In this document: positions 4,785-61,201 of the stretch, piece after piece
Numbering within the stretch: position 1 is the first letter of the stretch
Layout of the letters: the number at the start of each line of letters is the position of its first letter
Assembly (NCBI GenBank): GCA_964501135.1
Contig: CAZCRI010000001.1
Location: forward strand, 128,393-192,392
Direction: 5' to 3'
Origin: an uncultured Candidatus Saccharibacteria bacterium
Lineage (GTDB): Bacteria > Patescibacteriota > CPR2 > UBA1875 > CAIMLA01
Length of the DNA: 64,000 nt
Position numbers and translations under genes: made by a program
Notes under the pieces: model-generated
The model's input: only the letters and a program-made list of their open reading frames with translations
Database searches by the model: none
What the model was told of the DNA's origin: nothing

Positions 4785-6412
4785 TGAAAAAAGACTTTGT
4801 AGATAGCCGGATTTTCAACAGGTTTCTGGAAATCATGCCTGGCTTCGTAGCGCTTTCTTACCTTATTTTGCCTTTTGTACTTGCGCCGACCTTTCCTGTA
4901 ATCGTCGCATACTTTATTTTGGCTTTTAATTTCTACTGGTTTATAAAGGCAATCAATATCATGAGACACATGATAAACGGATTTCAGCACATGTGGCACG
5001 ACATGAAGGTGGACTTTTTGGCACGTGCCAAGATGGCCACAACAGACCCTGCCAAGCTCGAAAAGGAACTTCGCGCTAGATACGAAAAAAGTAACAATCG
5101 GTTGGATTACCTGGATTGGTTGGAGTTTTCTCACCTTGAGGGTAGATACGATAACATCAAGAATTGGGAAGATATCTATCAGGTTGTTTTCGTTACCAAC
5201 TATCAGGAAGAGTACTACATCACCGAGTCTACCTTTGAAGCGCTCAGAGACTCGAATTTTCCAAATGACAAAATCATTGTAGTTTCTTGTGGAGAGAAGC
5301 GAGATGAAGAAAATTACCTCAAAGTTCAGGCCGAGATCGAGAAAAATTTCGGTGGAGTCTTCCGCGATATGTACTTTTTTATGCACGAAGTGATGCCAGA
5401 TGAAGTCATCGGCAAGGGTGGAAACTTATACTCGGCAATGTCCAAATTCTATGAGGTGTTTAAGGAAAAGTACCCAGATGTGCGCCCAGAGAGCGTAATT
5501 TGCACCACTTTAGATGGTGACCACATCCCTCACAAAGAGTATTTTGCCGAGATTACCTACAAGCACATTATCGACCCTGATCGTGACCGTAAAACTTATC
5601 AGCCAAATATCTTGATGTTCAACAATATTTGGGATGCACCTTCTCCAAGCCGCGTTCTTGCCGTAGCTTCCAGCTTTTGGCAGATGGTAGAGTCGATGCG
5701 TCCTTACCGATTACGTACCTTTGCTTCCCATTCACAGAGTTTATCTACCTTGCTCACAACTGACTTCGTCTCCAGGTATACTATCGTTGAGGATGGCCAC
5801 CAGTATTGGCGTACTTATTTTGCCTTCAACGGAAACCACGAGATGATGCCAATCTATGTGCCAATCTATCATGATACGGTTCTGGGTAATAATTTCTGGG
5901 AAACACTCAAAAACCAATACAAGCAACGTCGTCGTTGGGCTTGGGGAATCTCGGACTTTCCATTTATTATTAAAAACTATATGCGCCACCCAGAGATTCC
6001 TTTTTGGGAGAAGTTTATCCAGACATATCGCCACGTCGCAGGGCATATTTCCTGGTCAACCTCGTCTTTCCTCTTGGCTTTCGCCTGGATCCCGCTGCTC
6101 TTTAATAGCTCATTCCAAGATACCGTACTTGCGCACAATGTTTCTATCTACAGTTCGATGATGCTCAAGCTTGCCTGGATTGCAGTATTTGCGAATGCTT
6201 GGCTTTATTTCTTACTCTTACCTCCGTTGCCCAAGCGTTTCGAAAAGACCCGCGTTTTGCGTTATGCCGGGATGGTTTTCCAGTGGGCGATAGCCCCATT
6301 TGTGCCGATATTACTATCTTCCTTGCCGGCGCTAGAGTCACAAATACGTCTTATGTTTGGCCAGAGTCTAAACGTCTTCTGGACAACGCCAAAAGTTCGC
6401 GGAAGAGATTAA
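4784..6412 (+). CDS. family-2 processive beta-glycosyltransferase (cellulose/chitin-synthase-like; D,D,D,Q(Q/R)XRW signature) with N- and C-terminal TM segments
   Basis: 542 aa; TLDGDH motif and QYKQRRRWAWG (QxxRW) motif; flanking TM helices. Confidence 0.7.
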   Translation: MKKDFVDSRIFNRFLEIMPGFVALSYLILPFVLAPTFPVIVAYFILAFNFYWFIKAINIMRHMINGFQHMWHDMKVDFLARAKMATTDPAKLEKELRARYEKSNNRLDYLDWLEFSHLEGRYDNIKNWEDIYQVVFVTNYQEEYYITESTFEALRDSNFPNDKIIVVSCGEKRDEENYLKVQAEIEKNFGGVFRDMYFFMHEVMPDEVIGKGGNLYSAMSKFYEVFKEKYPDVRPESVICTTLDGDHIPHKEYFAEITYKHIIDPDRDRKTYQPNILMFNNIWDAPSPSRVLAVASSFWQMVESMRPYRLRTFASHSQSLSTLLTTDFVSRYTIVEDGHQYWRTYFAFNGNHEMMPIYVPIYHDTVLGNNFWETLKNQYKQRRRWAWGISDFPFIIKNYMRHPEIPFWEKFIQTYRHVAGHISWSTSSFLLAFAWIPLLFNSSFQDTVLAHNVSIYSSMMLKLAWIAVFANAWLYFLLLPPLPKRFEKTRVLRYAGMVFQWAIAPFVPILLSSLPALESQIRLMFGQSLNVFWTTPKVRGRD

Positions 6413-13269: not shown

Positions 13270-14312
13270 TGGAAGAAGAGAGGGATCACAAAGTAACGGT
13301 AGAGTTCTCCTTCGTTTCGATTTTTTGGGTTCTCGGGATTATTTTGAGCCTTTGGCTGTTCGTTAACTTGCAGGACATCTTGATGTCCCTAGTCTTGGCT
13401 TTTATCCTTGCTACCGCTATCGCACCAGTAATTGATTTGCTTCAGAAGAAGAAAGTACCGAGAGCACTCTCGATTACCGTAATCTATCTGCTAATTCTTG
13501 GCCTCATCGTTCTGGTTGCGCGACTTATCTTGCCACCACTTGCGCAGCAGATTACCGGGCTATTTCAGAATCGCATGAGTTATATCGACACTATCTCCGG
13601 ATATTTCGGAAGCTTTAGTGAACCGATTCGAATCAATATGACTAGTGCCGTGAATAAATTCTCCGGTTCATTTACAAGCCTTAATTATTCAGGGCTTGTA
13701 ACTGGTGCCAAAGATATCTTCTCTGGTCTGATCGATGTTATCTTGGTCTTTGTGCTTAGTTTCTACTTCTTGCTCTCCAAGAACGGGATTGAAAACACCA
13801 TCACCCAGTACGTGCCAAAGCAATTCCAAAAGAAGGTTACCTTCCTTTTTAGAAAGATTTCCAAGAAGATGAGCGCTTGGCTTCAGGGGCAGGTATTCCT
13901 TGGCCTTATCATCTTTGCGGTAAATTTTGTTGGGCTTAGTATCCTGAGAGTTGATTATGCTCTTACGCTAGCCATTATCTCAGGGCTTTTGGAAGTACTT
14001 CCAATTATCGGACCTTGGGTTTCTGGCGGCCTAGCGACAATTGTTGCTCTTACAATGTCTCCAATCCTCGGGCTTATTGTTGCCTCTTGGTATGTCCTGG
14101 TTCAGCAGCTAGAAAACCACATTATTGTTCCTATGGTGATGAAGAAATCTTTGGGGCTCAATCCAATCGCTGTGATTCTCGCCTTGCTTATCGGTGGTAA
14201 ACTACTCGGGATTCTTGGTATAATTATCTCTGTGCCAGTCGCTGCCGCTATCGGTGTATTGCTGGAAGAATTTGTGAAGATTAAGGAAACGGAGGCAATG
14301 GGTGGAAATTAG
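13269..14312 (+). CDS. AI-2E family transporter (PerM/UPF0118)
   Basis: 8 TM pattern; conserved EVLPIIGPW and GLNP segments. Confidence 0.75.
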   Translation: MEEERDHKVTVEFSFVSIFWVLGIILSLWLFVNLQDILMSLVLAFILATAIAPVIDLLQKKKVPRALSITVIYLLILGLIVLVARLILPPLAQQITGLFQNRMSYIDTISGYFGSFSEPIRINMTSAVNKFSGSFTSLNYSGLVTGAKDIFSGLIDVILVFVLSFYFLLSKNGIENTITQYVPKQFQKKVTFLFRKISKKMSAWLQGQVFLGLIIFAVNFVGLSILRVDYALTLAIISGLLEVLPIIGPWVSGGLATIVALTMSPILGLIVASWYVLVQQLENHIIVPMVMKKSLGLNPIAVILALLIGGKLLGILGIIISVPVAAAIGVLLEEFVKIKETEAMGGN

Positions 14313-14934
14313 TTATCTCGGACATTCGTGTTTTAAAGTTACAGGCAAGAAAATTTCGGTTCTCACTGACCCATTTGACCCTGCAGTTGTGGGCATCAAA
14401 CTTGGAAAGCAGGATGCTGATGTTGTTACTATCAGTCATAACCACAAGGACCATAACAATCTTTCGGTTGTAAAAAGCGAAGAGTATTTGGTTTTAGATT
14501 CACCGGGTGAGTATGAAGTAAAAGAATCAGAGTTTGTTGGGGTAGAGGCCTATCATGACGAGAATCAGGGCGCAGATCGTGGCAAGGTCACTATGTTTGC
14601 CTTTGAAGTAGACGGAATCAAGATTGCACATCTTGGTGATCTTGGTACTGAACTTACAAGCGCTCAGCTAGATTGCCTAGACGGTGTCGATATCCTAATG
14701 TTACCAGTTGGTGGGCATAAGCATATTGATGCGAAAACTGCAGTGAAGGTAGCCACTCAGATTGAGCCAAAGATTATCTTACCAATGCACTACAAGATGG
14801 TGGAAGGTTCAGAGTTTGATCCAGCAGATAACTTTTATCATGAGATGGCTGTAAAGCCTGAACTTCAGGATAAGCTAAAGATTCAAAAGAAGGATTTACC
14901 GCTAGAACTTACAGTGGTAGCACTAAAGTACTAA
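14302..14934 (+). CDS. metal-dependent hydrolase, MBL fold (UPF0173-like)
   Basis: MEISYLGHSCFKV...TISHNHKDH...HLGDLG...PVGGH. Confidence 0.75.
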   Translation: MEISYLGHSCFKVTGKKISVLTDPFDPAVVGIKLGKQDADVVTISHNHKDHNNLSVVKSEEYLVLDSPGEYEVKESEFVGVEAYHDENQGADRGKVTMFAFEVDGIKIAHLGDLGTELTSAQLDCLDGVDILMLPVGGHKHIDAKTAVKVATQIEPKIILPMHYKMVEGSEFDPADNFYHEMAVKPELQDKLKIQKKDLPLELTVVALKY

Positions 14935-15003
14935 TCCCAAACAAAATTAATTTTAGCTGTCATTCCCGCGAAAGCGGGAATCTTTTTCGTCTATCGTCGT
15001 TAC

Positions 15004-15182
15004 ATTTACCGCTTTTGGCAGCAAAAGCGGTGCAAAACTGCCGACTCCTTGCAAGATTGCCAGTGTCACTCCTCCTTCACTCTTTCTTAAAAGACAAAAC
15101 TCGTCCGCCTGTAGGCGGACTCAAACATTGCCATTTTAAGATAATCGCTTAGTTCGTCGTTCGCTGTATTTCGCAGGTCGCG
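15004..15182. repeat. copy A of an about 180-bp structured intergenic repeat (partner at 53016-53197)
   Basis: about 90% identity to copy B; hairpins CCGCTTTTG-GCAG-CAAAAGCGG and GTCCGCC-TGTA-GGCGGAC; compensatory substitutions in second hairpin. Confidence 0.7.
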
Positions 15183-15213
15183 GAGCGAGGGTATTATTCA
15201 CGGTTAACGGGAT

Positions 15214-16050
15214 TTATGCAAGAGAGACAATATTTACAAAGAGTAGTAGGAAGGCGAAACAGTTTATCAGGAGGGCCGAGCGGAACTCGAACATATGTTT
15301 TTTGCTGGTATGGAGTCCACAACGTCGAAGCTCAATGCCATCAAAGACGATTAGCATAAAGAGCATTCCCCAGAGGATGAAGTAGCCAAGTTTACTGTCG
15401 CTCACGGGGCTGAGGAGATTTAAGGCTGGCTCACTCTTGGCACCCATTACTAGGGTGGTAAAGTTGCTTGTTTGAGTAGGTGCCGTCTTTTGTCGGCCAA
15501 ACATTTGAACCATCACCGTGCTGTCCTTACCGTCGATGGTGGCAGTTCCCACAGCGACGCCAATTTCGGTAAAATTGCTGTTTAGGAGGTTCTCGCGGTG
15601 TTTGGGTGACTCGGTCCAGGCTTTTACTACCCCCTCGGCTGTACTGAAGCCCTTCCCAAGGTTTTCTCCGGCGTATGCGTAATTGTAGCCGACACTCTCG
15701 ATAAAGGCCCAGGGTTGGACTCCTGAGGGCGAAGTGTGGTCCCAATAGCTATTCTTTTGCATATCGGCGATTTTGTCATTGGCGGCTTTGTCCAGTAGGG
15801 GGCTCTCAGCAAGTACGCCGAGTGAGTTGCTGGCGCGGAAAGAATTCGTTCGTTCTATAATTTCCTTATTGTCGGGAATTTGTGCTGCCAGGCTATGCGA
15901 TGGATCAATGTAAAGCCCACCAGTAAACAGTTGAGCCGCTGCGAGGAGCGCCGATAGTAAAGCTGCCAACTTGTGATTGGTCTTTTTTATCCTTGCTTTA
16001 CAGCTTTTCTTGGTCTGCACAGCTCTAGTTGTAGTCTTTTTCCTTGCCAT
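15214..16050 (-). CDS. CAP/SCP/PR1-like (YkwD-family) extracellular protein with C-terminal TM anchor
   Basis: CAP motifs (YNYAYAGENLGKGFSTAEGVVKAWTESPKHRENLLNSNFTEIGVAV); hydrophobic C-terminus. Confidence 0.65.
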   Translation of the reverse strand: MARKKTTTRAVQTKKSCKARIKKTNHKLAALLSALLAAAQLFTGGLYIDPSHSLAAQIPDNKEIIERTNSFRASNSLGVLAESPLLDKAANDKIADMQKNSYWDHTSPSGVQPWAFIESVGYNYAYAGENLGKGFSTAEGVVKAWTESPKHRENLLNSNFTEIGVAVGTATIDGKDSTVMVQMFGRQKTAPTQTSNFTTLVMGAKSEPALNLLSPVSDSKLGYFILWGMLFMLIVFDGIELRRCGLHTSKKHMFEFRSALLINCFAFLLLFVNIVSLA

Positions 16051-21574: not shown

Positions 21575-21966
21575 GTTCAGCTAGCTAGACAATCGCCCCC
21601 TTGGGGGAGGAAAGTCCGGGCACTACATGATTGGAATAGTTGCTAACGGCAACCGGTCGTGAGGCTAGGGAAAGTGCCACAGAGACAATACTGCCGATGG
21701 CTCGAAAGAGTACAGGTGATGGTGAAAAGAGTGAGGTAAGAGCGCACAGTGGGTTGTGGTGACACAACTCAGAGGTAAACCCTATTTGGTGCAAGACAGG
21801 TGGGCTAGGGTAAGGTCGATATGATCGCTTGGGGTAAAATCCAAGTAGTCTCCAATTCGAAAAAGCTGTAATCAGAGCCCCTTACCTGCGGTCCTGTCGC
21901 GTAGATAGATGATTGTCAGATCCTAGCAATAGGACGAACAAAACCCGGCTTATCGGCTAACTGAAC
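21575..21966 (+). ncRNA. rnpB: RNase P RNA, bacterial type A
   Basis: P4 strands GGAAAGTCCGGGC and ACAAAACCCGGCTTATCGG; P1 pairing GTTCAGCTAGC/GCTAACTGAAC; extended -10 TGtTATAAT at 21560-21568; terminator follows. Confidence 0.85.
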
Positions 21967-21970
21967 ACTA

Positions 21971-39382: not shown

Positions 39383-39748
39383 CTAGATTTCGTCAGCCTT
39401 TTTGATGTCTGTAACAAACAGGGCAAGTGATGGCTCGTTGTAGTACGATTCCAGGCAGAAGATCGGCTTTTTTAGCGCTGTAGCATAACCAATTTCCTGC
39501 ATCATTGATTTACCGAGCTCGCCCTCATAGTTCAAAACATAAAGCGCGTCAGCCGCTTGGAGTTCACGATAGTATTCACGCACTGCTTCTAGGTACTGGG
39601 TTTCGTTTATTTCCAGTCCGCTCTTGCCAAACAAGCGAAGGTCGATGTCCAGTGGCGTAATGCACTTGTGGCCATTCTTTTCTAGAGTACTTTTAATCTC
39701 CGCCCACTGATCCCAGTATTTATACTTTGAGCAAAGGAGAAACTTCAT
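39383..39748 (-). CDS. hypothetical protein, possibly nucleoside 2-deoxyribosyltransferase-like Rossmann fold
   Basis: 121 aa; ADALYVLN...GKSMMQEIGYATALKKPIF resembles NDT-superfamily C-terminal motif. Confidence 0.4.
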   Translation of the reverse strand: MKFLLCSKYKYWDQWAEIKSTLEKNGHKCITPLDIDLRLFGKSGLEINETQYLEAVREYYRELQAADALYVLNYEGELGKSMMQEIGYATALKKPIFCLESYYNEPSLALFVTDIKKADEI

Positions 39749-41457
39749 TAGACTAGTTTTTTGACCTTATCGATTGTCATAAGTCCCAGGTCGCCATCGG
39801 CATAGGAGCGCACAGAAAATTTGCCAGATTCGAGCTCTTTGTCTCCAACTACTAGCATGAATGGGTGTTTCTGCATCTCAGCGTTACGGATTTTTTTGCC
39901 TACGGACTCTTTGCTCTCATCTATGGTTACTCGGATTCCAGCTTCTTTGAGCTCCTTGGCTACCTTAGCGCAGTATTCGACATGGCGGTCAGCAACTGGT
40001 AGTAAGGCCACTTGGAAGGGTGAAAGCCAGACAGGTAATGCGCCGGCATAGTTCTCGAGCAGAATTCCCATAAATCTCTCCATCGAGCCAAATACTGTAC
40101 GGTGAATCATTACTGGTCGTTTGCGATCTCCATTTTCGTCTACGTATTCTAGGTCAAAGCGTTCTGGCATCGAAAAATCGAGCTGAATTGTGGCGCATTG
40201 CCAAGTGCGACCGATGGCGTCAGTGATGTGAAAGTCGAACTTAGGACCGTAGAAGGCGCCATCCCCTGGATTGATTACGAAGTCTAGTTTTAGATCTTTG
40301 GCGACCTCTTCCATCACAGATTCGGCATGCTCCCAGATTTCGTCAGAGCCTATGGATTTCTCGGGGCGAGTGGAGAGCTCCACGTGATACTTTTCGAAGC
40401 CAAGCTCCTTGTACATCTTTTCGATAAGTCGGATGACGTCCTCGAGCTCATCTTTGGCTTGGGCCTCGGTACAGTAAATATGAGCATCATCCTGGGTAAA
40501 GGAACGGACGCGGAAAAGACCGTGCAGGGCGCCTGATAGTTCGTGTCTATGAACTAGGCCTAGCTCGGCATAACGAAGAGGTAGTTCACGGTAAGAGTGG
40601 AGACCAGATTTGTAAATTTGGATTCCTCCAGGGCAGTTCATTGGCTTTATGGCATAACCTTGCTCGTCAATGGTAGTGAAATACATATTGTTTTTATAGT
40701 TATCCCAGTGACCAGATTGATGCCATAGTTCTTCGCGAAGAATGATTGGAGTATTGATCTCCTCATAGCCAGCATTTTTGTGTTCATTTTTCCAATATTC
40801 TGTAAGAAGGTTACGTACAACCATTCCTTTTGGATGCCAAAAGGGGAAACCTGGCCCTTCCTCGTGGAAAGAGAAGAGGTTTAGCTCAGTGCCAAGGCGG
40901 CGATGATCACGTTTTTTGGCTTCCTCCTGAAGCTTTTCGTATTCTCCAAGCTCCTCCGCAGTATCAAAGGCAAGACCATAAATTCGCTGGAGCATCTTGT
41001 TCTTCTCGCTACCTTTCCAGTAGGCACCGGCAATAGAGACGAGTTTAAAGGCTTTAGTATCTAGCTCTTTGGTATTCTCGACGTGGGGACCAGCACAAAG
41101 GTCGACAAAACCGTCTACTCGGTAAAAAGAGACTGTTTTCTCACCTTTTGCAGTCAGGTCTTCTATAAGCTCAGCTTTATAGGTTTGTTTTTTCTTTCTG
41201 GCTTCTGCTAGGGCATCGGCAACCGGTACTTCTGAGCGCTCGAAGCTACCTCCAGATTTAATAAGCTGCTTCATCGCCTTTTGTAGTAGTGGCAAGTCCT
41301 CTGGGATTAGAGTCCTGGGTAGCTCAAAATCGTAATAAAATCCATTATCAATCGCAGGTCCAATAGCGAGCTTGGCCTCTGGGAACATTTCCAGTACCGC
41401 CGCTGCTAGGATGTGGCTATAGCTATGTCTTTTGGTTTCAATGCTTGGTTTATTCAT
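39748..41457 (-). CDS. thrS: threonine--tRNA ligase
   Basis: class II aaRS motifs (HRxxxGxxxRF... FRxE, GSMERFMGILLE), C-terminal anticodon-binding domain; AAGGAG RBS before ATG 41457. Confidence 0.9.
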   Translation of the reverse strand: MNKPSIETKRHSYSHILAAAVLEMFPEAKLAIGPAIDNGFYYDFELPRTLIPEDLPLLQKAMKQLIKSGGSFERSEVPVADALAEARKKKQTYKAELIEDLTAKGEKTVSFYRVDGFVDLCAGPHVENTKELDTKAFKLVSIAGAYWKGSEKNKMLQRIYGLAFDTAEELGEYEKLQEEAKKRDHRRLGTELNLFSFHEEGPGFPFWHPKGMVVRNLLTEYWKNEHKNAGYEEINTPIILREELWHQSGHWDNYKNNMYFTTIDEQGYAIKPMNCPGGIQIYKSGLHSYRELPLRYAELGLVHRHELSGALHGLFRVRSFTQDDAHIYCTEAQAKDELEDVIRLIEKMYKELGFEKYHVELSTRPEKSIGSDEIWEHAESVMEEVAKDLKLDFVINPGDGAFYGPKFDFHITDAIGRTWQCATIQLDFSMPERFDLEYVDENGDRKRPVMIHRTVFGSMERFMGILLENYAGALPVWLSPFQVALLPVADRHVEYCAKVAKELKEAGIRVTIDESKESVGKKIRNAEMQKHPFMLVVGDKELESGKFSVRSYADGDLGLMTIDKVKKLV

Positions 41458-41650
41458 GGTTTTCTCCTTTTTAACAAAAATACGGCCCAATAAGGCCGTC
41501 AAGTCCCGTAATCCAACGGGAGGTTCCACTCGACTTTCCCCGACGCTTCGGTCGGGAACTCTCTTTGGCCCATATCCACCTGGGCTCCTGGGTGAGACTC
41601 GGAGGTTGGTGAGGCCTCGTCGTGGTCTAAATCTATGAATTGAGTATACT
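41458..41650 (-). promoter_or_regulatory. T-box riboswitch-like leader of thrS with intrinsic attenuator terminator
   Basis: minus strand: terminator ACGGCC-TTATTG-GGCCGT + ATTTTTGTT directly upstream of RBS; upstream AGUGGAACC with UGGA bulge complementary to 3' ACCU of the tRNA-Thr above (discriminator U); ACC codon in upstream loop region. Confidence 0.6.
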
Positions 41651-43283: not shown

Positions 43284-44216
43284 TTATTTTGTTTTATTTT
43301 CTTTGTATACTGAGGCAGCTAACTCAGGTGGAATGGAATTAATAATGATACCAGTCCCCAACTCTAGGCCGGCCCAGATATTTGGCCGTGGGGAGAGTTT
43401 TAGATGAGTATGGTAGTCTTCATGGTTGACGGCATTTTCAAAGAAGTAGTTGTAGGCAATGCCGAGCTCATCTAGCTTCGCAAGTACAATCTTCAGGACT
43501 GTTGCCAGTGATTCCTTCTCGCCCTTTGTAAGTTCAGAGAAGGTTGCCACATGCCGCTTCGGTATAAACCAGGCACCGTATGGTGAGTCGCTAGCATAAG
43601 GAGCCAGGACGAAAAAGTTTTCATCCTCCCATATCACTCGACTGCTGCCCTTCTCCTTTTCGATTATGTCGCAGTAGGGGCAATTTACGTGTTCTAGTCG
43701 GTATTCATTGTAGGCCTTGGCTTCCTCTTCTACTTTTGGAGGAACTATTGGTAACGCGATAATTTGGGTGTGGGAGTGGGAAACCGAAGCCCCTGCTTTG
43801 CCGCCTTCGTTTTTAAAAACGATTACATGTTTGACTTTAGGCATTGCGCGCAAGGTGTCGAATCTGTCGATACAGGCATCAATTATATTTACTATATGGC
43901 TTACGGCAAGTTCGTGGAGTTCCTTGCAGTGATTGCGCGTTTCAATAAGGACTTCTTGCTGTCCAAAAGCACGAGTATTCTCCGTGCTAAGGGCACTGAA
44001 CTTATTGATAACCGAAATCACGTCCCATTTGCCGTCGCTATTTTTATGTTGATAGGTTACTATCTCGTCTGAAGAGAGATTCTGAGGACAGAAAAAGCAT
44101 TCCTTACTGCAATTATCAGCTGGCTGAGTAATCTTCTGCGGTCGCTTGGCACGCTTAGGGGCGATAATGACGTATTTATCTAAAAAGTAATCCTTGCGAA
44201 TTTCTGATTTTTCCAT
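43284..44216 (-). CDS. galT: galactose-1-phosphate uridylyltransferase-family (HIT-like) protein
   Basis: DKYVIIAPKRAKRP, Zn site CFFCP, HSHTQI (HxHxQ) motif; ORF extends to 44312 but would overlap divergent gene, MEKSEI start preferred. Confidence 0.65.
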   Translation of the reverse strand: MEKSEIRKDYFLDKYVIIAPKRAKRPQKITQPADNCSKECFFCPQNLSSDEIVTYQHKNSDGKWDVISVINKFSALSTENTRAFGQQEVLIETRNHCKELHELAVSHIVNIIDACIDRFDTLRAMPKVKHVIVFKNEGGKAGASVSHSHTQIIALPIVPPKVEEEAKAYNEYRLEHVNCPYCDIIEKEKGSSRVIWEDENFFVLAPYASDSPYGAWFIPKRHVATFSELTKGEKESLATVLKIVLAKLDELGIAYNYFFENAVNHEDYHTHLKLSPRPNIWAGLELGTGIIINSIPPELAASVYKENKTK

Positions 44217-44310
44217 GAACCCTCCGATAAAAGTATAGAGTAGCTGGTTGCTAGTAGCAAGTATTTCAGGTTTAGACATAGGTGTATAATTTTGATGAAA
44301 AGGAGTTGCC

Positions 44311-44574
44311 ATGAAGAAAAATAAATTTTGCCAAAGCTGTGGCTATCCTATGTCAAAAGACAAGAATGGCGGCGGCACTGAAGCGGATGGTACCAAGAGC
44401 GCGAAATACTGCTCGATGTGCTATATGGGCGGAGAGTTTTTAAGCCCGCCAGAGGTGGACACGGCCGAGAAGTTCCAGGTGTATTGTATTCAGGAAATGA
44501 AGAAAGACGGTATGAATGGTTTTGTGGCTTGGTTTCTGACCAGGGGGATACCAAAATTAGAAAGATGGCAGTAG
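44311..44574 (+). CDS. zinc-ribbon domain protein (87 aa)
   Basis: AAAGGAG RBS; CQSCGYPM...YCSMCY Cys4 pattern. Confidence 0.6.
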   Translation: MKKNKFCQSCGYPMSKDKNGGGTEADGTKSAKYCSMCYMGGEFLSPPEVDTAEKFQVYCIQEMKKDGMNGFVAWFLTRGIPKLERWQ

Positions 44575-44595
44575 ACAACTTTTCGCCGGAGATTT

Positions 44596-44937
44596 CTACG
44601 ACCTAAGTATAAATAGTATTAGGAATCCAAATAGGGTATAAAATCCGAGCCATAAAATACTGTATATCACAGCTCTTGTACCATCATCCTTTTTGCCGTC
44701 AAGAAACAGTAACAGAGGTTTCCCAAAAGTTAGCCCGCCAACGATAGCTGCTGACAGACAAAAGAGCAGTAGTAATACGAAGGGCGTAAGCATGTTATCT
44801 GTCTCACCAAAAATTTTTGAACCATTTTGCATTAGTTGCGATACGCCGAAAATATAGAGCGAGGCGACTGATAGGTTTCGGAATGTTATTAACAATAGTT
44901 TGTCTTTCATATATACATGATAACAAAAATATTCCAC
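44596..44937 (-). CDS. small integral membrane protein, hypothetical
   Basis: 113 aa, three hydrophobic helices. Confidence 0.45.
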   Translation of the reverse strand: MEYFCYHVYMKDKLLLITFRNLSVASLYIFGVSQLMQNGSKIFGETDNMLTPFVLLLLFCLSAAIVGGLTFGKPLLLFLDGKKDDGTRAVIYSILWLGFYTLFGFLILFILRS

Positions 44938-44953
44938 ATTTGTGGAATATTTT

Positions 44954-44998
44954 TGGTGGAGCGTAGTAGATGAAGCTTGGAACTACTACACTCCACCA
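44954..44998. repeat. palindromic repeat copy 1 (TGGTGGAGCGTAGTAG-ATGAAGCTTGGAA-CTACTACACTCCACCA), preceded by terminator-like hairpin
   Basis: near-perfect 16-bp inverted arms; shares 36-bp core with copies at 47144 and 47858. Confidence 0.8.
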
Positions 44999-45014
44999 TT
45001 GACGTGTATTTAGT

Positions 45015-45701
45015 TTATCTTGCTACTAGAGTCTTAAGTTTCTTTGGGAGAAAGTAATTTAGATGCCAAAGGATATGTAGAATAGATATTTCTGCCATCA
45101 TAGTACCACCAATTACATGCCAGTAAATTGTTGAGAACGGGAAATTCAAGACTAGACCGTAGGTAACCTTGAGCACTAGGAGGGTTCCGAATATGCCTGC
45201 TGGCACAAAGCTAAATAGAAGTATGTAGTTCCAAATTTTTCTATGTGTAATTGTCTTAATTTTCTTAAACTTTGAAAGTAACCAAGTTACCAGATATAGT
45301 ATAAGCGTCACTATAGTAACTTCTAGGAAATAATAATTTTTTGTTGGATTCTTAATTTCTTCAGCCTTTTCTTGCTTCTTAGTAGTGATAACCTGTTCTG
45401 TAGAGGTTCCGCTGTTTGTTATCAACGATTTCGCAATATCATTAGCAGAACTAGGTTCGAGGCCAGCATTATCATGTAATTTCTGAATTTCATCAGAAGA
45501 GCTAACGTTTATATTTAGGAGCTTACCTAAATTATTTGCATATTCGGTTGCGGAAATCTTATAAAAATCCGCGACTTCTTGTATGCTCATGGTTTTGATT
45601 TCACCACCGCTGAGAGTTGATTCATCGGCTTCAGCAAAAACAGCTGTTAGGGGAGCGAGAATTAGAATTATTCCCAGAGTGATTAGTAGTTTCTTAAGCA
45701 T
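45015..45701 (-). CDS. hypothetical protein with signal peptide and C-terminal multi-TM domain
   Basis: 228 aa; MLKKLLITLGIILILAPLTAVFA signal; C-terminal hydrophobic helices. Confidence 0.5.
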   Translation of the reverse strand: MLKKLLITLGIILILAPLTAVFAEADESTLSGGEIKTMSIQEVADFYKISATEYANNLGKLLNINVSSSDEIQKLHDNAGLEPSSANDIAKSLITNSGTSTEQVITTKKQEKAEEIKNPTKNYYFLEVTIVTLILYLVTWLLSKFKKIKTITHRKIWNYILLFSFVPAGIFGTLLVLKVTYGLVLNFPFSTIYWHVIGGTMMAEISILHILWHLNYFLPKKLKTLVAR

Positions 45702-45912
45702 TTCTATAGGCCTCCTTTATTTACTTAAGATAATATGAATATAAACTGAGAAAAACCTGAGAACGGTAAACATCAGACCTTGAAAACGCCATGGTAAAAC
45801 TTTGCCTGCCCGACCCCGGAGTGATTTTAGTGTGTTTGAATGCTAGGGATACTCCTGATTGAGCGCTTTAAGGTTGTAGGGTACAATTATTAGATTAATT
45901 TAGGAGAAATAA

Positions 45913-46101
45913 ATGCCGATCTATGTTTATAAAGCGAAATGCCCGCAAGACCATGTTTGTCCTGCCATGAGAGTTTGCCCAGTGTCTGCACTTTCTCAAG
46001 AGGGATTCGACGCTCCAGTAGTAGATAAAGATAAGTGTATAGAATGTGGGGCTTGTTCAAGGTTGTGTCCTATGGGCGCTTTGCAGTTTATGAAGGAGTA
46101 G
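45913..46101 (+). CDS. small 4Fe-4S ferredoxin-like protein
   Basis: CIECGACSRLCP cluster motif plus second Cys group; GGAG RBS. Confidence 0.6.
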   Translation: MPIYVYKAKCPQDHVCPAMRVCPVSALSQEGFDAPVVDKDKCIECGACSRLCPMGALQFMKE

Positions 46102-46141
46102 TGGTTTGACTCGACGGGTTCGAGTCTATAATATGTAGTAG

Positions 46142-47107
46142 ATGGATGTGTTTATACCTATTCAAATATTTGCTGATATGTTGGTTTACAATGTATTTCA
46201 CGTAGCCAAGGGGAGTGCTCTTGGTAACACTCTGAACTTTTTTGTATATGATACGATAAAAATTCTTATTTTATTAACTGTTATTATCTTCATAGTTTCC
46301 CTGATAAGGTCATATTTTCCTCCCGAGAAAACAAAGAGGCTGCTCGGCAAACACGATAAAACACTTTTGGGTAATTTCCTTGCCGCTTTACTTGGTATCG
46401 TTACTCCCTTTTGCTCGTGTTCTGCGGTTCCGTTATTTATGGGATTCGTTCAAGCCGGGATACCATTAGGGACAACATTTTCTTTTCTTATCTCATCACC
46501 GATGGTAAATGAAGTAGCCCTAGTGCTTCTTTGGGGCCTGTTCGGCTGGAAGATTGCTGTTATCTATATAGTTTCAGGAGTAGTCATCGCTACTGTGGGT
46601 GGTTGGGTTATGGGTAAGCTAAAGCTCGAAAGGTGGGTCGAAGAGTTTGTTTATAAAATGGTAGTTGGCAGTAAATCCGAAAAGGAACTATCTGTAAACG
46701 ACCGACTGGTATACGCAAAAAAATATGTGATAGAGATTGTTAGTAGTGTATGGATATACATTGTTATTGGCGTAGGTCTAGGCGCCCTGATGCATGGTTA
46801 TGCGCCAAGTGACTTTCTAGCGAGATTCGCAGGTCCAGATAATCCATTCGCAGTTCCTATGGCTGTGCTCGTAGGTATCCCTTTGTACTCAAATGCTGCA
46901 GGAACAGTACCAATCGTCTCTGTTTTGGTAGATAGGGGAATGGCGATGGGAACAGCCCTTGCTTTTATGATGTCAGTTACAGCCTTATCATTACCAGAAT
47001 TTATTATTTTGAAGAAAATACTTAAACCCAAGTTGATAGCTACTTATGCTGCTATTGTGGGACTAGGAATCATCTTCATAGGCTATCTTTTTAATATAAT
47101 ACTATAA
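46142..47107 (+). CDS. DUF318/ArsP-family permease (putative organoarsenical efflux permease)
   Basis: multi-TM; conserved TPFCSCS motif (GIVTPFCSCSAVPL). Confidence 0.6.
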   Translation: MDVFIPIQIFADMLVYNVFHVAKGSALGNTLNFFVYDTIKILILLTVIIFIVSLIRSYFPPEKTKRLLGKHDKTLLGNFLAALLGIVTPFCSCSAVPLFMGFVQAGIPLGTTFSFLISSPMVNEVALVLLWGLFGWKIAVIYIVSGVVIATVGGWVMGKLKLERWVEEFVYKMVVGSKSEKELSVNDRLVYAKKYVIEIVSSVWIYIVIGVGLGALMHGYAPSDFLARFAGPDNPFAVPMAVLVGIPLYSNAAGTVPIVSVLVDRGMAMGTALAFMMSVTALSLPEFIILKKILKPKLIATYAAIVGLGIIFIGYLFNIIL

Positions 47108-47143
47108 AACAAAAAAGGCTTTATCAAGCCTTAATAATTGTCA

Positions 47144-47177
47144 TGGTGGAGCGTAGTAGATGAAGTTTGGAACTACT
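47144..47177. repeat. palindromic repeat copy 2 (core TGGTGGAGCGTAGTAGATGAAGTTTGGAACTACT), preceded by terminator hairpin 47115-47132
   Basis: 34/36 identical to copy 1 core. Confidence 0.8.
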
Positions 47178-47183
47178 TTGAAG

Positions 47184-47783
47184 CTAAAGACCTTTTATCG
47201 TTTCAACAAGCTCGGGGAAATGTTCTAGTTTAAAATGACCCTTGTCGTCAAATAATATAACCTCAGATTTCGGTGATTCTTCGTTATATTTATAGACATG
47301 GTCTAAAGGAACCACTATATCATCTTTGCTTTGAATTAGAATTATCTTATTAGTTTGATCATTTAAACCAATAAGTGATTTTGTTAAAGTAAATGACCCT
47401 AATTCTTCATCTTCAAGCTCTTCATAAGGAGCTGAGACTAATATTACGGCCTTTATGGTTTTGGGGAATTTGTTTTCAGATAAATACTTCGCAAGAAATA
47501 TTCCACCAAGCGAATGGCCGATAAGAATTACATTATTATTGAGGAGGGGAATTATTTTCTCAAACCAAATTGACCACTCTGTGTATTGAGCATTGGTTCC
47601 GTTTGGCATTCTAGGGCTTAAAACTTCATAGTCATCACCAAGATCTGCCGCTAAAGAATCTTTCCATGCCAGTGTATATTTTAACTTTTCTGGTTTGAGA
47701 ACGTATGCTTTCAGATATTCAAGATAATTCCCATAGCTTGAGAAGGTTGTCCCACCGTGAATTATTAAAACTTGTTGTTTCAT
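47184..47783 (-). CDS. alpha/beta-hydrolase-fold serine esterase (RBBP9/YdeN-like)
   Basis: GHSLGG nucleophile elbow, Asp and His downstream. Confidence 0.65.
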   Translation of the reverse strand: MKQQVLIIHGGTTFSSYGNYLEYLKAYVLKPEKLKYTLAWKDSLAADLGDDYEVLSPRMPNGTNAQYTEWSIWFEKIIPLLNNNVILIGHSLGGIFLAKYLSENKFPKTIKAVILVSAPYEELEDEELGSFTLTKSLIGLNDQTNKIILIQSKDDIVVPLDHVYKYNEESPKSEVILFDDKGHFKLEHFPELVETIKGL

Positions 47784-47857
47784 AGATACATTTTAACACA
47801 AAACTAGTTCAAACATTTACCTAAAACCATGATAATGCCTTTTATAAGGCATTATCA

Positions 47858-47893
47858 TGGTGGAGCGTAGTAGAAGAAGTTTGGAACTACTAC
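47858..47893. repeat. palindromic repeat copy 3 (core TGGTGGAGCGTAGTAGAAGAAGTTTGGAACTACTAC), preceded by 10-bp-stem hairpin 47831-47856
   Basis: same orientation as copies 1 and 2. Confidence 0.8.
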
Positions 47894-47959
47894 TCGCTAG
47901 CTTGCCGGTAATGGAAATCAGTACTTACTACAGTGTCTGTTTCGTAATATAATTTAACT

Positions 47960-48934
47960 ATGATAGGTATCGTCACTTTAATCGTTGTTGGCTTCTGCCT
48001 CCTAGTGCTTGGAGGGAATTTTGTGGTCAAGGGGGCAACATCTTTCGCTAAGAAACTGGGTATACCGACACTGATCGTTGGGCTCACCGTGGTTGCTTTT
48101 GGTACTAGTGTCCCAGAACTTTTTGTAACTACCGCTTCGACACTAAAGGGTGTCAGTGAATTTGCCCTATCAGATATTATAGGTAGTAATATAGTTAACT
48201 CACTAATGATATTGGGCGTAGCTATAGCCATAAGGCCCATAAAGACAAGCTCAAAGGCTATCCATAGGCTTCTTTATTCACTAACTATTTTTTCTTTACT
48301 CTTTTGGATTGTTTCCGACAGGATATTTATATTAAAGCCGAATGTTATAGATATTGGCTTTTTGGAAGGACTCATTTTACTAGGTGCCTTTTCATACTTC
48401 ATATTCACTCATATTCGTAAGGTTTACCTAGATAACAATGAAAAACAACTGACAGAAGAGTATGAAAGAGCGGAGCCAGGTATTTTATCAACTGCTCAAT
48501 CTATATTAGAAATTAGTATTGGCGTCGTAGCACTAACGTTTGGTGCAAAGTTTGTGGTAGACAATGCCGTGCAAATATGTGAAATGTTTAATATTAGTAA
48601 AACGTATATAGGCCTAACCGTTCTTACTCTCGGTACATCACTACCAGAGCTGGCGACAGTAATCGTTGCTTCGTTAAAAGATGAGGGAGAGATAGTGCTA
48701 GGTAATATCATTGGCAGTAATATATTTAATATCGCGTTTATCCTCGGCATCTCTGGCCTAGTGGGTGGTATTTCGGCTAACGGAATGATGAGAGTAGACA
48801 TTATATTTATGATACTTGTGGGTATCCTTCTTCACTATATCGCAGATAAAAAGAAGATATACTCTAAGGTATTTGGATACCAGCTCATCGCACTTTATCT
48901 GACCTACTTTATATTAATTTCTTTTAGAGGCTGA
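47960..48934 (+). CDS. CaCA-family sodium/calcium exchanger membrane protein (YrbG-like)
   Basis: two alpha-repeat motifs GTSVPELFVT and GTSLPELATV. Confidence 0.8.
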   Translation: MIGIVTLIVVGFCLLVLGGNFVVKGATSFAKKLGIPTLIVGLTVVAFGTSVPELFVTTASTLKGVSEFALSDIIGSNIVNSLMILGVAIAIRPIKTSSKAIHRLLYSLTIFSLLFWIVSDRIFILKPNVIDIGFLEGLILLGAFSYFIFTHIRKVYLDNNEKQLTEEYERAEPGILSTAQSILEISIGVVALTFGAKFVVDNAVQICEMFNISKTYIGLTVLTLGTSLPELATVIVASLKDEGEIVLGNIIGSNIFNIAFILGISGLVGGISANGMMRVDIIFMILVGILLHYIADKKKIYSKVFGYQLIALYLTYFILISFRG

Positions 48935-48975
48935 TACTGGTGTATAGTAGGAAGAGATTAAGTTAAGGGAGAAAC

Positions 48976-49167
48976 ATGAAACTATTTCACGATTATACAT
49001 TCAATTGGTGGCAGTTGGGGATATTCAAGCTTTCACTACTATCTATCGGCGTTATTCTCGGTGCTTATTGGAGCGATCTTTTCCTTAGTAACCTCATCTA
49101 TGTTTCGGTCGTTGTGATTATCTCAACTTTGTATGTTTTAATTATCGCCCTAAAGCAAACTAAATAA
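48976..49167 (+). CDS. small membrane protein (63 aa), hypothetical
   Basis: two hydrophobic helices; GGGAG RBS. Confidence 0.4.
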   Translation: MKLFHDYTFNWWQLGIFKLSLLSIGVILGAYWSDLFLSNLIYVSVVVIISTLYVLIIALKQTK

Positions 49168-49225
49168 TAAAAAAAGCCTCATGCGAGGTATTTTTATTGG
49201 CTTATTAGAGCCATAATACAGGCAT

Positions 49226-49621
49226 TGGTGGAGCTGGTGGGTACTGCCCCCACGTCCGAAAGCGAAGCCGAAATAATTTGTAACAATCATACTCGGGACT
49301 GGTAGTTTTGGTGCTGATGGTCAAGTCTCGAGAAAATCCATCGGCCTTATCCTCTAGAGTTTCAGGTTAGCTTAGAGAAGTCACTAGCCCTACCCCTGAC
49401 ATATATGGCACTCAGTAGCGAACGATTCAGGTCTCACTCACAAGAGCGGTTACTGCGTATTAGGCAGCAACTGGCGCAAAGCTGTTTACGCTGAAAGCGC
49501 TAGCAACCTTACTAACAAAGTTTTTTGCAACTATGTCTGATCTGCTGAATAACGCGGACAGACCACCGCGGATTGTATCATTTCGATTTCAAGATACCTT
49601 CGTCGAAGCTAATTCAGCCCC
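49226..49621 (-). ncRNA. ssrA: tmRNA (SsrA), standard one-piece
   Basis: minus strand 5' GGGGCUGAAUUAGCUUCGACGAAGG..., 3' ...GUGGGGGCAGUACCCACCAGCUCCACCA; acceptor pairing with G3-U70; resume GCA after AUAGUU; predicted tag (A)KNFVSKVASAFSVNSFAPVAA ending UAA; smpB 3.6 kb away. Confidence 0.8.
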
Positions 49622-49794
49622 CCCGTCGTCGAAATCTGCTGTCAGATTACAACAAATTGTTATCACAATTGTCTTCATCTTATTGCAGTTTCTCCTCTCC
49701 CCTTAAATCCTTCGGATTTCGGGGACCCCATTCCGGGGCTCGGCATATTGTAACATGCCTTATAAATATAACACAATAGTGCGTAAAAGTCAAG

Positions 49795-50817
49795 TTATTT
49801 GCCGGAGTTGAAGGACTTCAGTCTTTGTAAGTAAAAGAAGCCCAGCCCGAGCGGAGCCCAGAAGTTTAGCCCGCGAAAGACTATAGCAATCGCAGTTGCA
49901 GATATGAGCGGGACGCCAAAAGAGGTGAAGATAAGCACTATCACGGCCTCGACCGCGCCGACACCTTCAGGCTGGGGTGAAATAACCCTGACTACTTCTG
50001 CGAAAACATAACCAGCAATTAGGGCACCATAATGTATGCGAATGTCAAAAGCAAAGAATATAACGTATAAAGATAAGGCATTAATTACATGTGCCAAGAG
50101 TGCTAAACATAGCGTTTCGGCAAGTCTACGTTTGTGTACGCTGATTATTTTCGCAGCAGTACTAAGTTCGTCCGAGATAGCCAGTGGCCAGGTAGCGGCT
50201 AGACGTTTCTTGAATCGAAATATTTTGGACACCCTGTTGAAAAGTGACCTTATCCAAATCAAAAAACAGACTACGGCCTTCGGTCTTTTATTTGCGTAAA
50301 AAAGTAACAGAGGTGGGATGATTGTCGGTAATGTAAAGATTAGAGCTCCGGTGATTTCGAAGTCGTTTAAGAGGTGATTTCTTTGAAGGAAGATAACCGC
50401 GAATATTAACAGTAGAAAGAAAGAGGCATAGCTGGAGACAATGCTGATTAGGTAGCCCACCACGGCTTTTGTAGAAGATTCCTTTCTTTTTGCGGCATCG
50501 TCAGCAAAGAGTATGGTACCAGAGTTGCCGGCTGTCGGGGCCAACACATTGACAAATAGAGCACCAAGAACGAGAGGGTACAAGTCTTTTACGTTGCGTT
50601 TGATGTCGACCACCAAGAAAGAATGGCGAGTCATGATTGTATAGATATAAAAGTACAATAACTGCGTTGTTAGAGCCACAAGTAGCCATCGCCAGCTGCC
50701 TTGTGATAGGGCATCTACGATAGCGTATAGCTCTTTTGAATGTGTAAAAATGTAGAAACCAAAAATTACACAAAGCAGGACGAAAACGGTTCTTCTGTTA
50801 AATAGTAGTTTCTTCAT
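49795..50817 (-). CDS. flippase-like/lysylphosphatidylglycerol-synthase-TM-family integral membrane protein
   Basis: 8 TM helices, typical partner of GT2 gene immediately downstream. Confidence 0.55.
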   Translation of the reverse strand: MKKLLFNRRTVFVLLCVIFGFYIFTHSKELYAIVDALSQGSWRWLLVALTTQLLYFYIYTIMTRHSFLVVDIKRNVKDLYPLVLGALFVNVLAPTAGNSGTILFADDAAKRKESSTKAVVGYLISIVSSYASFFLLLIFAVIFLQRNHLLNDFEITGALIFTLPTIIPPLLLFYANKRPKAVVCFLIWIRSLFNRVSKIFRFKKRLAATWPLAISDELSTAAKIISVHKRRLAETLCLALLAHVINALSLYVIFFAFDIRIHYGALIAGYVFAEVVRVISPQPEGVGAVEAVIVLIFTSFGVPLISATAIAIVFRGLNFWAPLGLGFFYLQRLKSFNSGK

Positions 50818-53212: not shown

Positions 53213-53671
53213 TTAGTGAACACTATCTTTCAGCTCTCGTCTGGTTTCGATATCTAGTTCTCTGTTCTTAATAACATTACGCTTATCATGCTGCTTTTTG
53301 CCACGCGCAAGAGCAATCTCGACCTTGATAAGACCATGTGAGAAATATATTTTCACTGGAACTATGGTGTAGCCTGCGGTTTGTACTTTACCGATGAGCT
53401 CAGAAATTTCTGATTTTTTTAGTAGTAATCGACGTGCTCTGGTGGGTTCCGCATTATTACCTGCCGCTGGCTTGTAAGGTGAAACGTGAGCGTTATTGAG
53501 CCAGATTTGGCTATCTTTGACACTGGCAAATGATTCTTTGAGCGAAATGTGGCCATCACGAATACTCTTCACCTCGGGGCCGATGAGTTCGATGCCGGCC
53601 TCAAAAACTTCCAAAATTTCGTAGTCGAAGTGGGCTTTTTTATTCGTAGCAATGACTTTTATGTTTTGCAT
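53213..53671 (-). CDS. smpB: SsrA-binding protein
   Basis: FDYEILEVFEAGIELIGPEVKSIR...LLLKK... Confidence 0.9.
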   Translation of the reverse strand: MQNIKVIATNKKAHFDYEILEVFEAGIELIGPEVKSIRDGHISLKESFASVKDSQIWLNNAHVSPYKPAAGNNAEPTRARRLLLKKSEISELIGKVQTAGYTIVPVKIYFSHGLIKVEIALARGKKQHDKRNVIKNRELDIETRRELKDSVH

Positions 53672-60425: not shown

Positions 60426-61092
60426 TACGCTGAAAAACCTGAATACTCGGAATTAAGGTTACTTAAGCGTGTTCCTCTACCCCTGCAACCGAATTGCCTT
60501 GTGTGCATATACTGTCGCCGGGAGATAGTGAATATAACCGATGCAAGATGCGGGATCAACACCTTTCCGAGTAGGTGGGTCTCTCGCAAACTGGGACTGG
60601 CGGAAAAGTAGGCCGCGATAACAACAGAGGGTTTGCCTCAGTGGTCCACGCCGAAAGAGGTAGGCATAGAATTAGCCGACGCAACCTCCGCCGTTTCAAA
60701 GTCCAAGTCTACTACGTACCAGCTTCGTTTCAGGTACCTCTTGTAGGCGCAAGCCCTAGTCGAAACGCTGCGTTTGCTGCTGCCCTCGGGGCGGTAGGGA
60801 TGTAAGCTCACTGGCTGGGCAAAGTTCGGTGCCAGTAAGGCCCGCATGTAGAGTTGCGTAATGTCGCCACGGAGCAGAGAGCTCACGGCGCAGAGACTCC
60901 TACACGGGAACCGATTGGTACAAATCTAGGCCGGCATGGTGACCGTTACTGTGGTCACTTTGCCCTCGTTCGCGGATTTCGAACCGCGATTACGGGGGCC
61001 ATGCCAGCCCCTTCCATAGCTACAAACGCCTTGACAGAGGCATATATATAGGTTATACTCTTTTCTTGGTGCACTTCGGTGCCCATTTTCAT

Positions 61093-61201
61093 GGGGGGTA
61101 GCTCAGTGGATAGAGCGCCGTTTGTCAGATGGTCCGATCAACGGGTCATATCATCTGACGCTCGACGGAGGTCACAGGTTCGAGCCCTGTCCCCCCCACC
61201 A
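61093..61201 (+). tRNA. tRNA-like gene with canonical acceptor, D and T arms but a 34-nt insertion in the anticodon arm; identity undetermined
   Basis: GGGGGG.TAGCTCAGTGGATAGAGC..CCGTT[41 nt]GACGG-AGGTC-ACAGGTTCGAGCCCTGT-CCCCCCC-A-CCA; insertion forms 8-bp stem GTCAGATG/CATCTGAC. Confidence 0.55.

Follow-up and report, generated by a model that had tools for sequence, protein, structure and literature searches.

The minus strand of the window (the whole stretch of 64,000 nucleotides analysed here) carries an RNA gene with the layout of a one-piece tmRNA and a T-loop that departs from the canonical one. The locus raises the question of whether it is an ordinary ribosome-rescue gene (ssrA), a decaying copy of such a gene, or a tmRNA of a different architecture. 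The initial annotation, made from the letters of the sequence, had read positions 49226-49621 as a tmRNA. A covariance search bears this out, since the Rfam model RF00023 matches exactly this span over its full length (84.0 bits, E 4e-31, model positions 1-374 of 374), a score far above chance and well over the gathering score of 47 bits. Every sequence feature on which the call had been based was found where it had been placed, including both ends of the gene: the minus strand opens at 49621 with 5′ GGGGCUGAAUUAGCUUCGACGAAGG and closes at 49226 with GUGGG-GGCAGUA-CCCAC-CAGCUCC-A-CCA, in which a T-arm-like segment is followed by the 3′ acceptor strand, the discriminator and CCA. We conclude that the gene is almost certainly the single-copy, one-piece tmRNA of a Patescibacteria/CPR bacterium, working by standard trans-translation. 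The conservation of its fold, promoter and tag frame, together with an intact smpB and an RNase P RNA gene in the window, argues for an ordinary ribosome-rescue tmRNA gene. The features of the locus are collected in Table 1.

Table 1. Coordinates of the tmRNA gene, its parts and its neighbours, in positions of the window.
Feature	Position	Strand	Evidence
Mature one-piece tmRNA (ssrA), 396 nt, encoded CCA end	49226-49621	-	RF00023, 84 bits, E 4e-31
Promoter: -35 TTGACT 49793-49788, 17-nt spacer ending TG, -10 TATATT 49770-49765	49765-49793	-	Consensus scan
Structured pre-tmRNA 5′ leader, about 137 nt transcribed	49622-49764	-	MFE -49.8 kcal/mol, z -6.4
Acceptor stem, 5′ strand GGGGCUG, G3 at 49619	49615-49621	-	Pairs with 49230-49236
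D-loop analogue AAUUAGCUUCGA, A12-G13 at 49610-49609	49603-49614	-	Alignments, loop tables, Rfam consensus
Helix 2 (2a, 2b, 2c), 5′ strands	49571-49602	-	Pairs with 49257-49288
PK1, CGCGG/CCGCG and GGUCUG/CAGAUC	49539-49570	-	Covariation in both stems
Tag frame: resume GCA 49528-49526, 22 codons (AKNFVSKVASAFSVNSFAPVAA), stop UAA 49462-49460	49460-49528	-	ARAGORN, homologs, substitution pattern
Helix 5, hairpin presenting the stop codon	49449-49471	-	7 pairs, 5 with compensatory change
PK2, three stems	49395-49448	-	9 pairs changed on both sides
PK3, GGCUA/UAACC and UUCUCU/AGAGGA	49350-49389	-	8 pairs changed on both sides
PK4, GAUGG/CCAUC and CUCGAGACU/AGUCCCGAG	49292-49342	-	10 pairs changed on both sides
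Helix 2, 3′ strands	49257-49288	-	Covariation count
T-arm: stem GUGGG/CCCAC, 7-nt loop GGCAGUA 49242-49248	49237-49253	-	Sequence, loop tables
Acceptor 3′ strand CAGCUCC 49230-49236, discriminator A 49229, CCA 49226-49228	49226-49236	-	Sequence and alignment
Terminator-like hairpin CCUC-GCAU-GAGG then U7, about 40 nt past CCA	49169-49189	-	Read from sequence
smpB, protein partner of tmRNA	53213-53671	-	PF01668, 191 bits, 1-142 of 143
ORF, very likely spurious, 68 aa, TTG start, antisense to tmRNA 5′ end, leader and -10 box	49573-49779	+	No conservation
RNase P RNA, class A	21577-21968	+	186.9 bits
tRNA-like gene, 107 nt	61092-61198	+	Rfam tRNA 43.6 bits; no ARAGORN call

SmpB homologs place the window in the Patescibacteria/CPR, with named matches to 'Patescibacteria group bacterium' and 'candidate division WS5'. 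Relatives with 65-96% SmpB identity retain ArgRS, SmpB, GT4, GT2 and LPG-synthase-TM in this order, and the gap after LPG-synthase-TM, where the tmRNA completes this conserved order, holds an RF00023 match of 85-141 bits in nine distinct syntenic loci; the window gene has the lowest score in its clade. The window and these nine loci (L001, L002, L006, L208, L209, L210, L211, L212 and L213) made up the comparison set, and their ten tmRNAs align with a mean column identity of 79%. The assignment of smpB at 53213-53671 was likewise upheld by its Pfam match, and the intact gene lies 3.6 kb from the tmRNA gene, giving the organism a complete tmRNA-SmpB ribosome-rescue system.

To evaluate the fold, we drew 15 helices and 94 pairs by hand on the window sequence, projected them onto the ten-sequence alignment and counted the pairs. 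Standard pairs filled 96.1% of the cells, compared with 35-44% when the 3′ partner was slid by one to three columns. Drawing the fold from the window sequence favours it in this percentage, whereas it is the other nine sequences that supply the compensatory changes. Such two-sided changes with pairing kept were found in 43 of the 94 pairs, and none of 500 shuffles matched the real alignment on any of five measures. The T-stem and all seven pairs of the acceptor stem are invariant in the ten sequences; the pairing of 5′ GGGGCUG with 3′ CAGCUCC and the G3-U70 alanine identity element, both noted at the outset, are therefore found throughout the set, with A73 as the discriminator. Helix 2 (22 pairs) is 98-99% paired and has six pairs with changes on both sides. 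Pairing in the nine pseudoknot stems (two each in PK1, PK3 and PK4, three in PK2) ranges from 84 to 100%, and each stem has one or more pairs changed on both sides; the first stem of PK3 has one C-A mismatch in the window. All four pseudoknots that the call presupposed thus fold, and they covary across the ten sequences.

The gene shares this architecture with one-piece bacterial tmRNAs (RF00023) such as E. coli SsrA, including G3-U70 and A73, the encoded CCA, the SmpB partner, a stemless D-loop analogue ending in UUCGAC, helix 2, PK1 before the resume codon, the stop codon in helix 5, PK2-PK4 and a 5-bp T-stem with a 7-nt loop. Its resume context, AUAGUU-GCA, also resembles the AUAGUC-GCA of the E. 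coli tmRNA.

The resume GCA at 49528 directly follows AUAGUU, ARAGORN recognises the resume consensus here, and the UAA stop, preceded by GCC as the last codon, lies within helix 5. The frame of about 22 residues that had been proposed between them proved to be exactly 22 codons long, encoding AKNFVSKVASAFSVNSFAPVAA, and the comparison with relatives showed its length, frame and UAA kept in all ten sequences. Variable columns in the tag number 10, 9 and 17 at the first, second and third codon positions, and the pairwise codon differences among the ten sequences include 191 synonymous ones, a pattern that points to coding-type variation biased to the third position. Residues A1, S6, A9, A11, F12, F17, A18 and A22 are invariant, and homologous 22-aa tags were called independently by ARAGORN in L006/L007, L208, L210, L212 and L213.

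The tag had also been described as unusually long. Its length stands, and the Rfam alignment shows 33 nt (11 codons) inserted at the tag position with respect to the consensus, but "unusual" is an overstatement. Tags of 8-35 aa have been published (PMC8012679), 10 aa being the commonest length (PMC11915505), which sets the window tag apart from those of E. coli SsrA-type tmRNAs. A Magasanikiibacteriota relative has a 25-aa tag, and other one-piece metagenome tmRNAs (CPR-like) have tags of 23-29 aa. The window tag is thus long yet within the known range, and normal for its lineage. With other long-tag tmRNAs it shares an initial Ala and an ending in a hydrophobic residue then Ala (PMC8012679), whereas the family AK[NT][FL]xS[KR][VI]AxAF[SR][VI]NxFAPxxA is specific to the lineage of the window. 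The penultimate residue can be A, T, V or I within the clade, so the tag does not end in a strict ClpX motif of the LAA type.

Only the T-loop sequence of the gene is really non-canonical, and on this the initial annotation was silent. The loop reads GGCAGUA instead of UUCRANU (UUCGAAU in E. coli SsrA), with G54, G55 and G58 in place of the canonical U54, U55 and A58, and keeps C56 and R57 alone. The D-loop has A12-G13 where canonical tmRNAs, E. coli SsrA included, have GG (Rfam consensus cuGGaUUCGAC). The U54-U55-C56-R57-A58 sequence is near-universal in tmRNA but not defining. Accepted tmRNAs with GG or UG are on record, and such variants are common among RF01849 matches. For example, GG takes the place of U341 and U342 in the Reclinomonas mitochondrial tmRNA, and G that of U342 in the Caulobacter tmRNA (Burks et al. 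2005, PMC1168896). The GG-for-UU variant is therefore already on record in alphaproteobacterial and mitochondrial tmRNAs, and the window case is an extension of it rather than a discovery. A full-text literature search for GGCAGUA returned unrelated microRNA papers alone.

A scan of metagenomes for T-arms with GGCNGUA yielded at least 120 contigs; among the matches listed, nearly all are tmRNA 3′ ends, and their D-loops read GAAYUAGNNUCGAC. Fourteen of 19 representatives of these listed contigs are alphaproteobacterial or other permuted genes (RF01849 up to 230 bits, or RF04321), and the remaining five are one-piece RF00023 genes. Because GGCAGUA is combined with a UAG D-loop in many alphaproteobacterial permuted tmRNAs, which score up to 230 bits, this combination is compatible with a conserved and presumably working tmRNA. 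The window gene resembles the two-piece tmRNAs of Alphaproteobacteria and mitochondria (RF01849/RF04321) in this combination, a T-loop of GGCAGUA or GGCGGUA with a D-loop of GAAYUAGNNUCGAC. In contrast to them, it is one-piece and not circularly permuted (RF04321 23 bits only), keeps four pseudoknots, belongs to a Patescibacteria host, and shows sequence similarity to them in the tRNA-like domain alone.

Within the comparison set, three combinations of the two loops were found: UUCRANU with GG in L006, L212 and L213; UGCGAUA with AG in L208 and L210, a T-loop state that resembles the Caulobacter tmRNA with its G for U342; and GGCRGUA with AG in the window, L001, L002, L209 and L211. We built a neighbour-joining tree of the clade tmRNAs with the loop columns masked and 300 bootstraps. 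In every bootstrap the UUC/GG lineages came apart from the others, and in 277 of the 300 UGC/AG was sister to the GGC/AG clade. The distribution fits a two-step path, in which the D-loop G would have changed to A with U55 to G first, and U54 to G with A58 to G afterwards. As an unselected control, tmRNAs beside smpB were collected by an SmpB-based contig scan, the matches listed being mostly from distant phyla with two close relatives among them, and in these other phyla each UUC-type T-loop with a readable D-loop has GG.

The tmRNA T-loop normally bears m5U and pseudouridine, and SmpB binding requires interactions between the D-loop and the T-loop (PMC3968760). As GGCAGUA lacks U54 and U55, the window RNA cannot carry m5U54 or pseudouridine 55. 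We infer that AG and GGC form a co-adapted alternative elbow that does without both modifications. By analogy with the D-loop/T-loop contacts of tRNA, it may be speculated that A18 contacts G55 and that G54 contacts G58. The clade series UUC/GG, UGC/AG and GGC/AG offers a natural test of how far the loss of the conserved T-loop uridines is tolerated, and bears on both the D-loop/T-loop contact and SmpB binding.

The same substitutions could be taken for inactivating mutations, GG for UU in the T-loop and AG for GG in the D-loop, marking a decaying tmRNA pseudogene in a reduced genome. The loss of U54, U55 and A58, the lowest Rfam score in the clade and rejection by ARAGORN would speak for such decay, which we nevertheless consider very improbable. 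The pair of AG and GGCRGUA is fixed in five divergent clade members (SmpB identity 72-96%), and these still covary in every helix and keep the tag frame and the promoter. Moreover, smpB is intact, the variant is the norm in alphaproteobacterial tmRNAs and recorded for Caulobacter and Reclinomonas (PMC1168896), and an Rfam scan found no second tmRNA in the 64-kb window.

The promoter of this functional-looking tmRNA gene matches the consensus at 10 of 12 positions plus the TG, is the only promoter-like site that the consensus scan found in the region, and has its TTGA and TGyTATAnT elements conserved in all ten sequences. It does not adjoin the mature 5′ end, from which it is some 140 nt away on the upstream side; measured from the -10 box, the gap amounts to 143 nt in the window and varies between 23 and 152 nt across the clade. 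The structured leader of about 137 nt sets the gene apart from E. coli SsrA, as the 5′ leader of the E. coli tmRNA is very short. The leaders of the window, L208, L210 and L213 have a hairpin and a long irregular stem in common; double changes preserve 19 of the 30 consensus pairs, which, coming from four sequences, is suggestive of a conserved structure. No Rfam family matched the leader, and it is absent or replaced in L001, L002, L006, L209 and L211. It may serve as a processing signal, a regulator or a separate sRNA. Two other candidates in this region were rejected: a short frame of 29 codons in the leader, which opens with AUG at 49676 and extends into the tmRNA, meets a stop after five codons in L208 and has no AUG in L213, and a pairing of leader with trailer in the window (AGGCAU/AUGCCU) is not conserved in L001 or L002. 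The hairpin beyond CCA, with a weak stem of 4 bp only, was also reported on the plus strand by the scan, and would presumably act as a terminator.

The ORF on the opposite strand had been dismissed as spurious, and as overlapping the 5′ end of the tmRNA and its promoter; it does span the leader and the 5′ end, and of the promoter it covers the -10 box alone, leaving the -35 box free. Were it a real small protein gene overlapping the tmRNA region, this would account for its open frame of 68 codons and for its partial tblastn matches in relatives. These matches, however, are confined to segments antisense to conserved RNA, with residues 1-18 mirroring the tmRNA 5′ end and residues 33-61 the leader in L208, and the match in L209 holds in-frame stops. 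The ORF also starts with TTG and matches no Pfam family, its frame is not conserved in relatives (the longest stop-free antisense stretch in L002, L209, L211 and L212 is 30-45 aa), and the leader that it spans is the very segment missing or replaced in five of the nine loci. A real gene here thus has hardly any chance, and the ORF is very likely spurious; the call over the 5′ end of the tmRNA gene should be dropped.

ARAGORN, which had been proposed as a second check on the tmRNA call, did not bear it out: no tmRNA was called in the window at default settings or at a 90% threshold. At 80% (-ps80) it reported a 'permuted' gene at 49369-49932, whose resume site and tag (AKNFVSKVASAFSVNSFAPVAA) agree with those given above. 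A change of G54 to U alone, made in silico, was enough to give a standard tmRNA call that keeps the 396-nt boundaries and the tag, and G55, G58 or the D-loop changed singly did not restore the call. ARAGORN therefore misses the gene because of G54 in the T-loop. The permuted, two-piece gene suggested by the 80% call and by a weak match to the Rfam tmRNA_permuted model (RF04321; 49460-49900, 23.4 bits, E 0.013) is effectively refuted, with next to no probability left to it, since this match is far under the threshold of 47 and truncated at its 5′ end, the '3′ tRNA domain' of the call falls inside the upstream LPG-synthase ORF, which marks the call as an artefact, the one-piece model is contiguous over 1-374 with a paired acceptor stem and with the T-arm and CCA at the 3′ end of the gene, and the single G54 change yields a standard one-piece gene.

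This blind spot extends beyond the window. ARAGORN missed all of ten distinct one-piece tmRNAs with G54, five from the clade and five from other metagenome contigs (L103, L137, L167, L187 and L199), but found three of five permuted genes that share the loop. Pipelines that annotate tmRNA by means of ARAGORN thus under-report ssrA in such CPR lineages, a problem that covariance models do not share. In the 2025 tmRNA database, ARAGORN and BLASTN supplied the candidates for the main pipeline, and a later Rfam-based pass was made for under-detected taxa (PMC11915505).

Taken together, the one-piece tmRNA may be read in a wider sense, which we put forward tentatively and rate somewhat short of an even chance. 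The D-loop AG and T-loop GGCRGUA would form a distinct elbow, without m5U54, pseudouridine 55 or the U54-A58 reverse-Hoogsteen pair, and the one-piece tmRNAs of Patescibacteria would have acquired it separately from the two-piece alphaproteobacterial lineage, by way of an extant Caulobacter-like UGCGAUA/AG intermediate. The genes concerned would be systematically missing from ARAGORN-based annotations, and the structured leader of 110-150 nt in part of the clade could be an undescribed processing or regulatory element.

From tmRNA biology and the features in Table 1, the following course of events can be proposed for the one-piece tmRNA. Transcription would start about 7 nt past the -10 box, near 49758, RNase P would cut at G1 (49621) to release the structured leader of about 137 nt, and trimming of the trailer would bring the 3′ end back to the encoded CCA. 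AlaRS would charge the RNA by way of G3-U70 and A73, and SmpB would bind the elbow in which the D-loop analogue meets the T-arm, and for which the tRNA-like domain would use its variant, AG for GG and GGCAGUA for UUCRANU. The tmRNA-SmpB complex would then enter the empty A site of a stalled ribosome, and translation would resume at GCA (49528), adding Ala and AKNFVSKVASAFSVNSFAPVAA, so that the tagged product is predicted to end in ...AAKNFVSKVASAFSVNSFAPVAA. Translation would end at the UAA, which helix 5 presents, and the product would probably be targeted to proteases by its hydrophobic C-terminus, ...FAPVAA.

Several further observations were made in the window and its relatives. GC content is 38-42% at 44000-50000, downstream of the tmRNA 3′ end, versus about 45% elsewhere, and the gene content on this side of the tmRNA differs among relatives; a genomic island at the tmRNA 3′ end, covering the low-GC segment at 44-50 kb, was considered but is not supported, as the window holds no duplicate or att-like repeat of the tmRNA 3′ end. 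L001, which is the closest relative and whose SmpB is 96% identical, has a shortened tmRNA leader of 55 nt, and between its LPG-synthase gene and the tmRNA lies a gene (13600-15381) whose 593-aa product has no Pfam match; the window has an ORF whose product is also 593 aa long, at 39748-41529 on the minus strand. The RNase P RNA gene has a large insertion in one helix (48 nt versus 15) and a deleted region (0 versus 24 in the model).

Among the listed matches to the GGCAGUA T-arm, the commonest are AT-rich permuted alphaproteobacterial tmRNAs, namely, L102 and about 65 similar marine contigs (L088-L207), which apparently come from an abundant marine lineage; L102 scores 230 bits with RF01849 and carries the ARAGORN tag ANESYALAA. 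The one-piece tmRNAs on L103, L137, L167, L187 and L199 have the T-loop GGCRGUA, as in the window, and four of them have candidate tags 23-29 aa long with the ending FAPVAA, FAPIAA or YAYAA. A LOOT RNA (RF03000, 78.7 bits) lies at 5126-5250 on the plus strand of L187, about 2 kb from the variant one-piece tmRNA.

Finally, the tRNA-like gene at the far end of the window (Table 1) has 43 nt in place of nine central anticodon-arm positions, which form a long additional hairpin, GUCAGAUG...CAUCUGAC, and its acceptor stem, otherwise made of G and C only, has a U1-C72 mismatch. Long tRNA matches (90-106 nt) are also present in L208, L210 and L212, and align poorly with this gene, which could hold an intron-like insertion or encode a non-standard tRNA.
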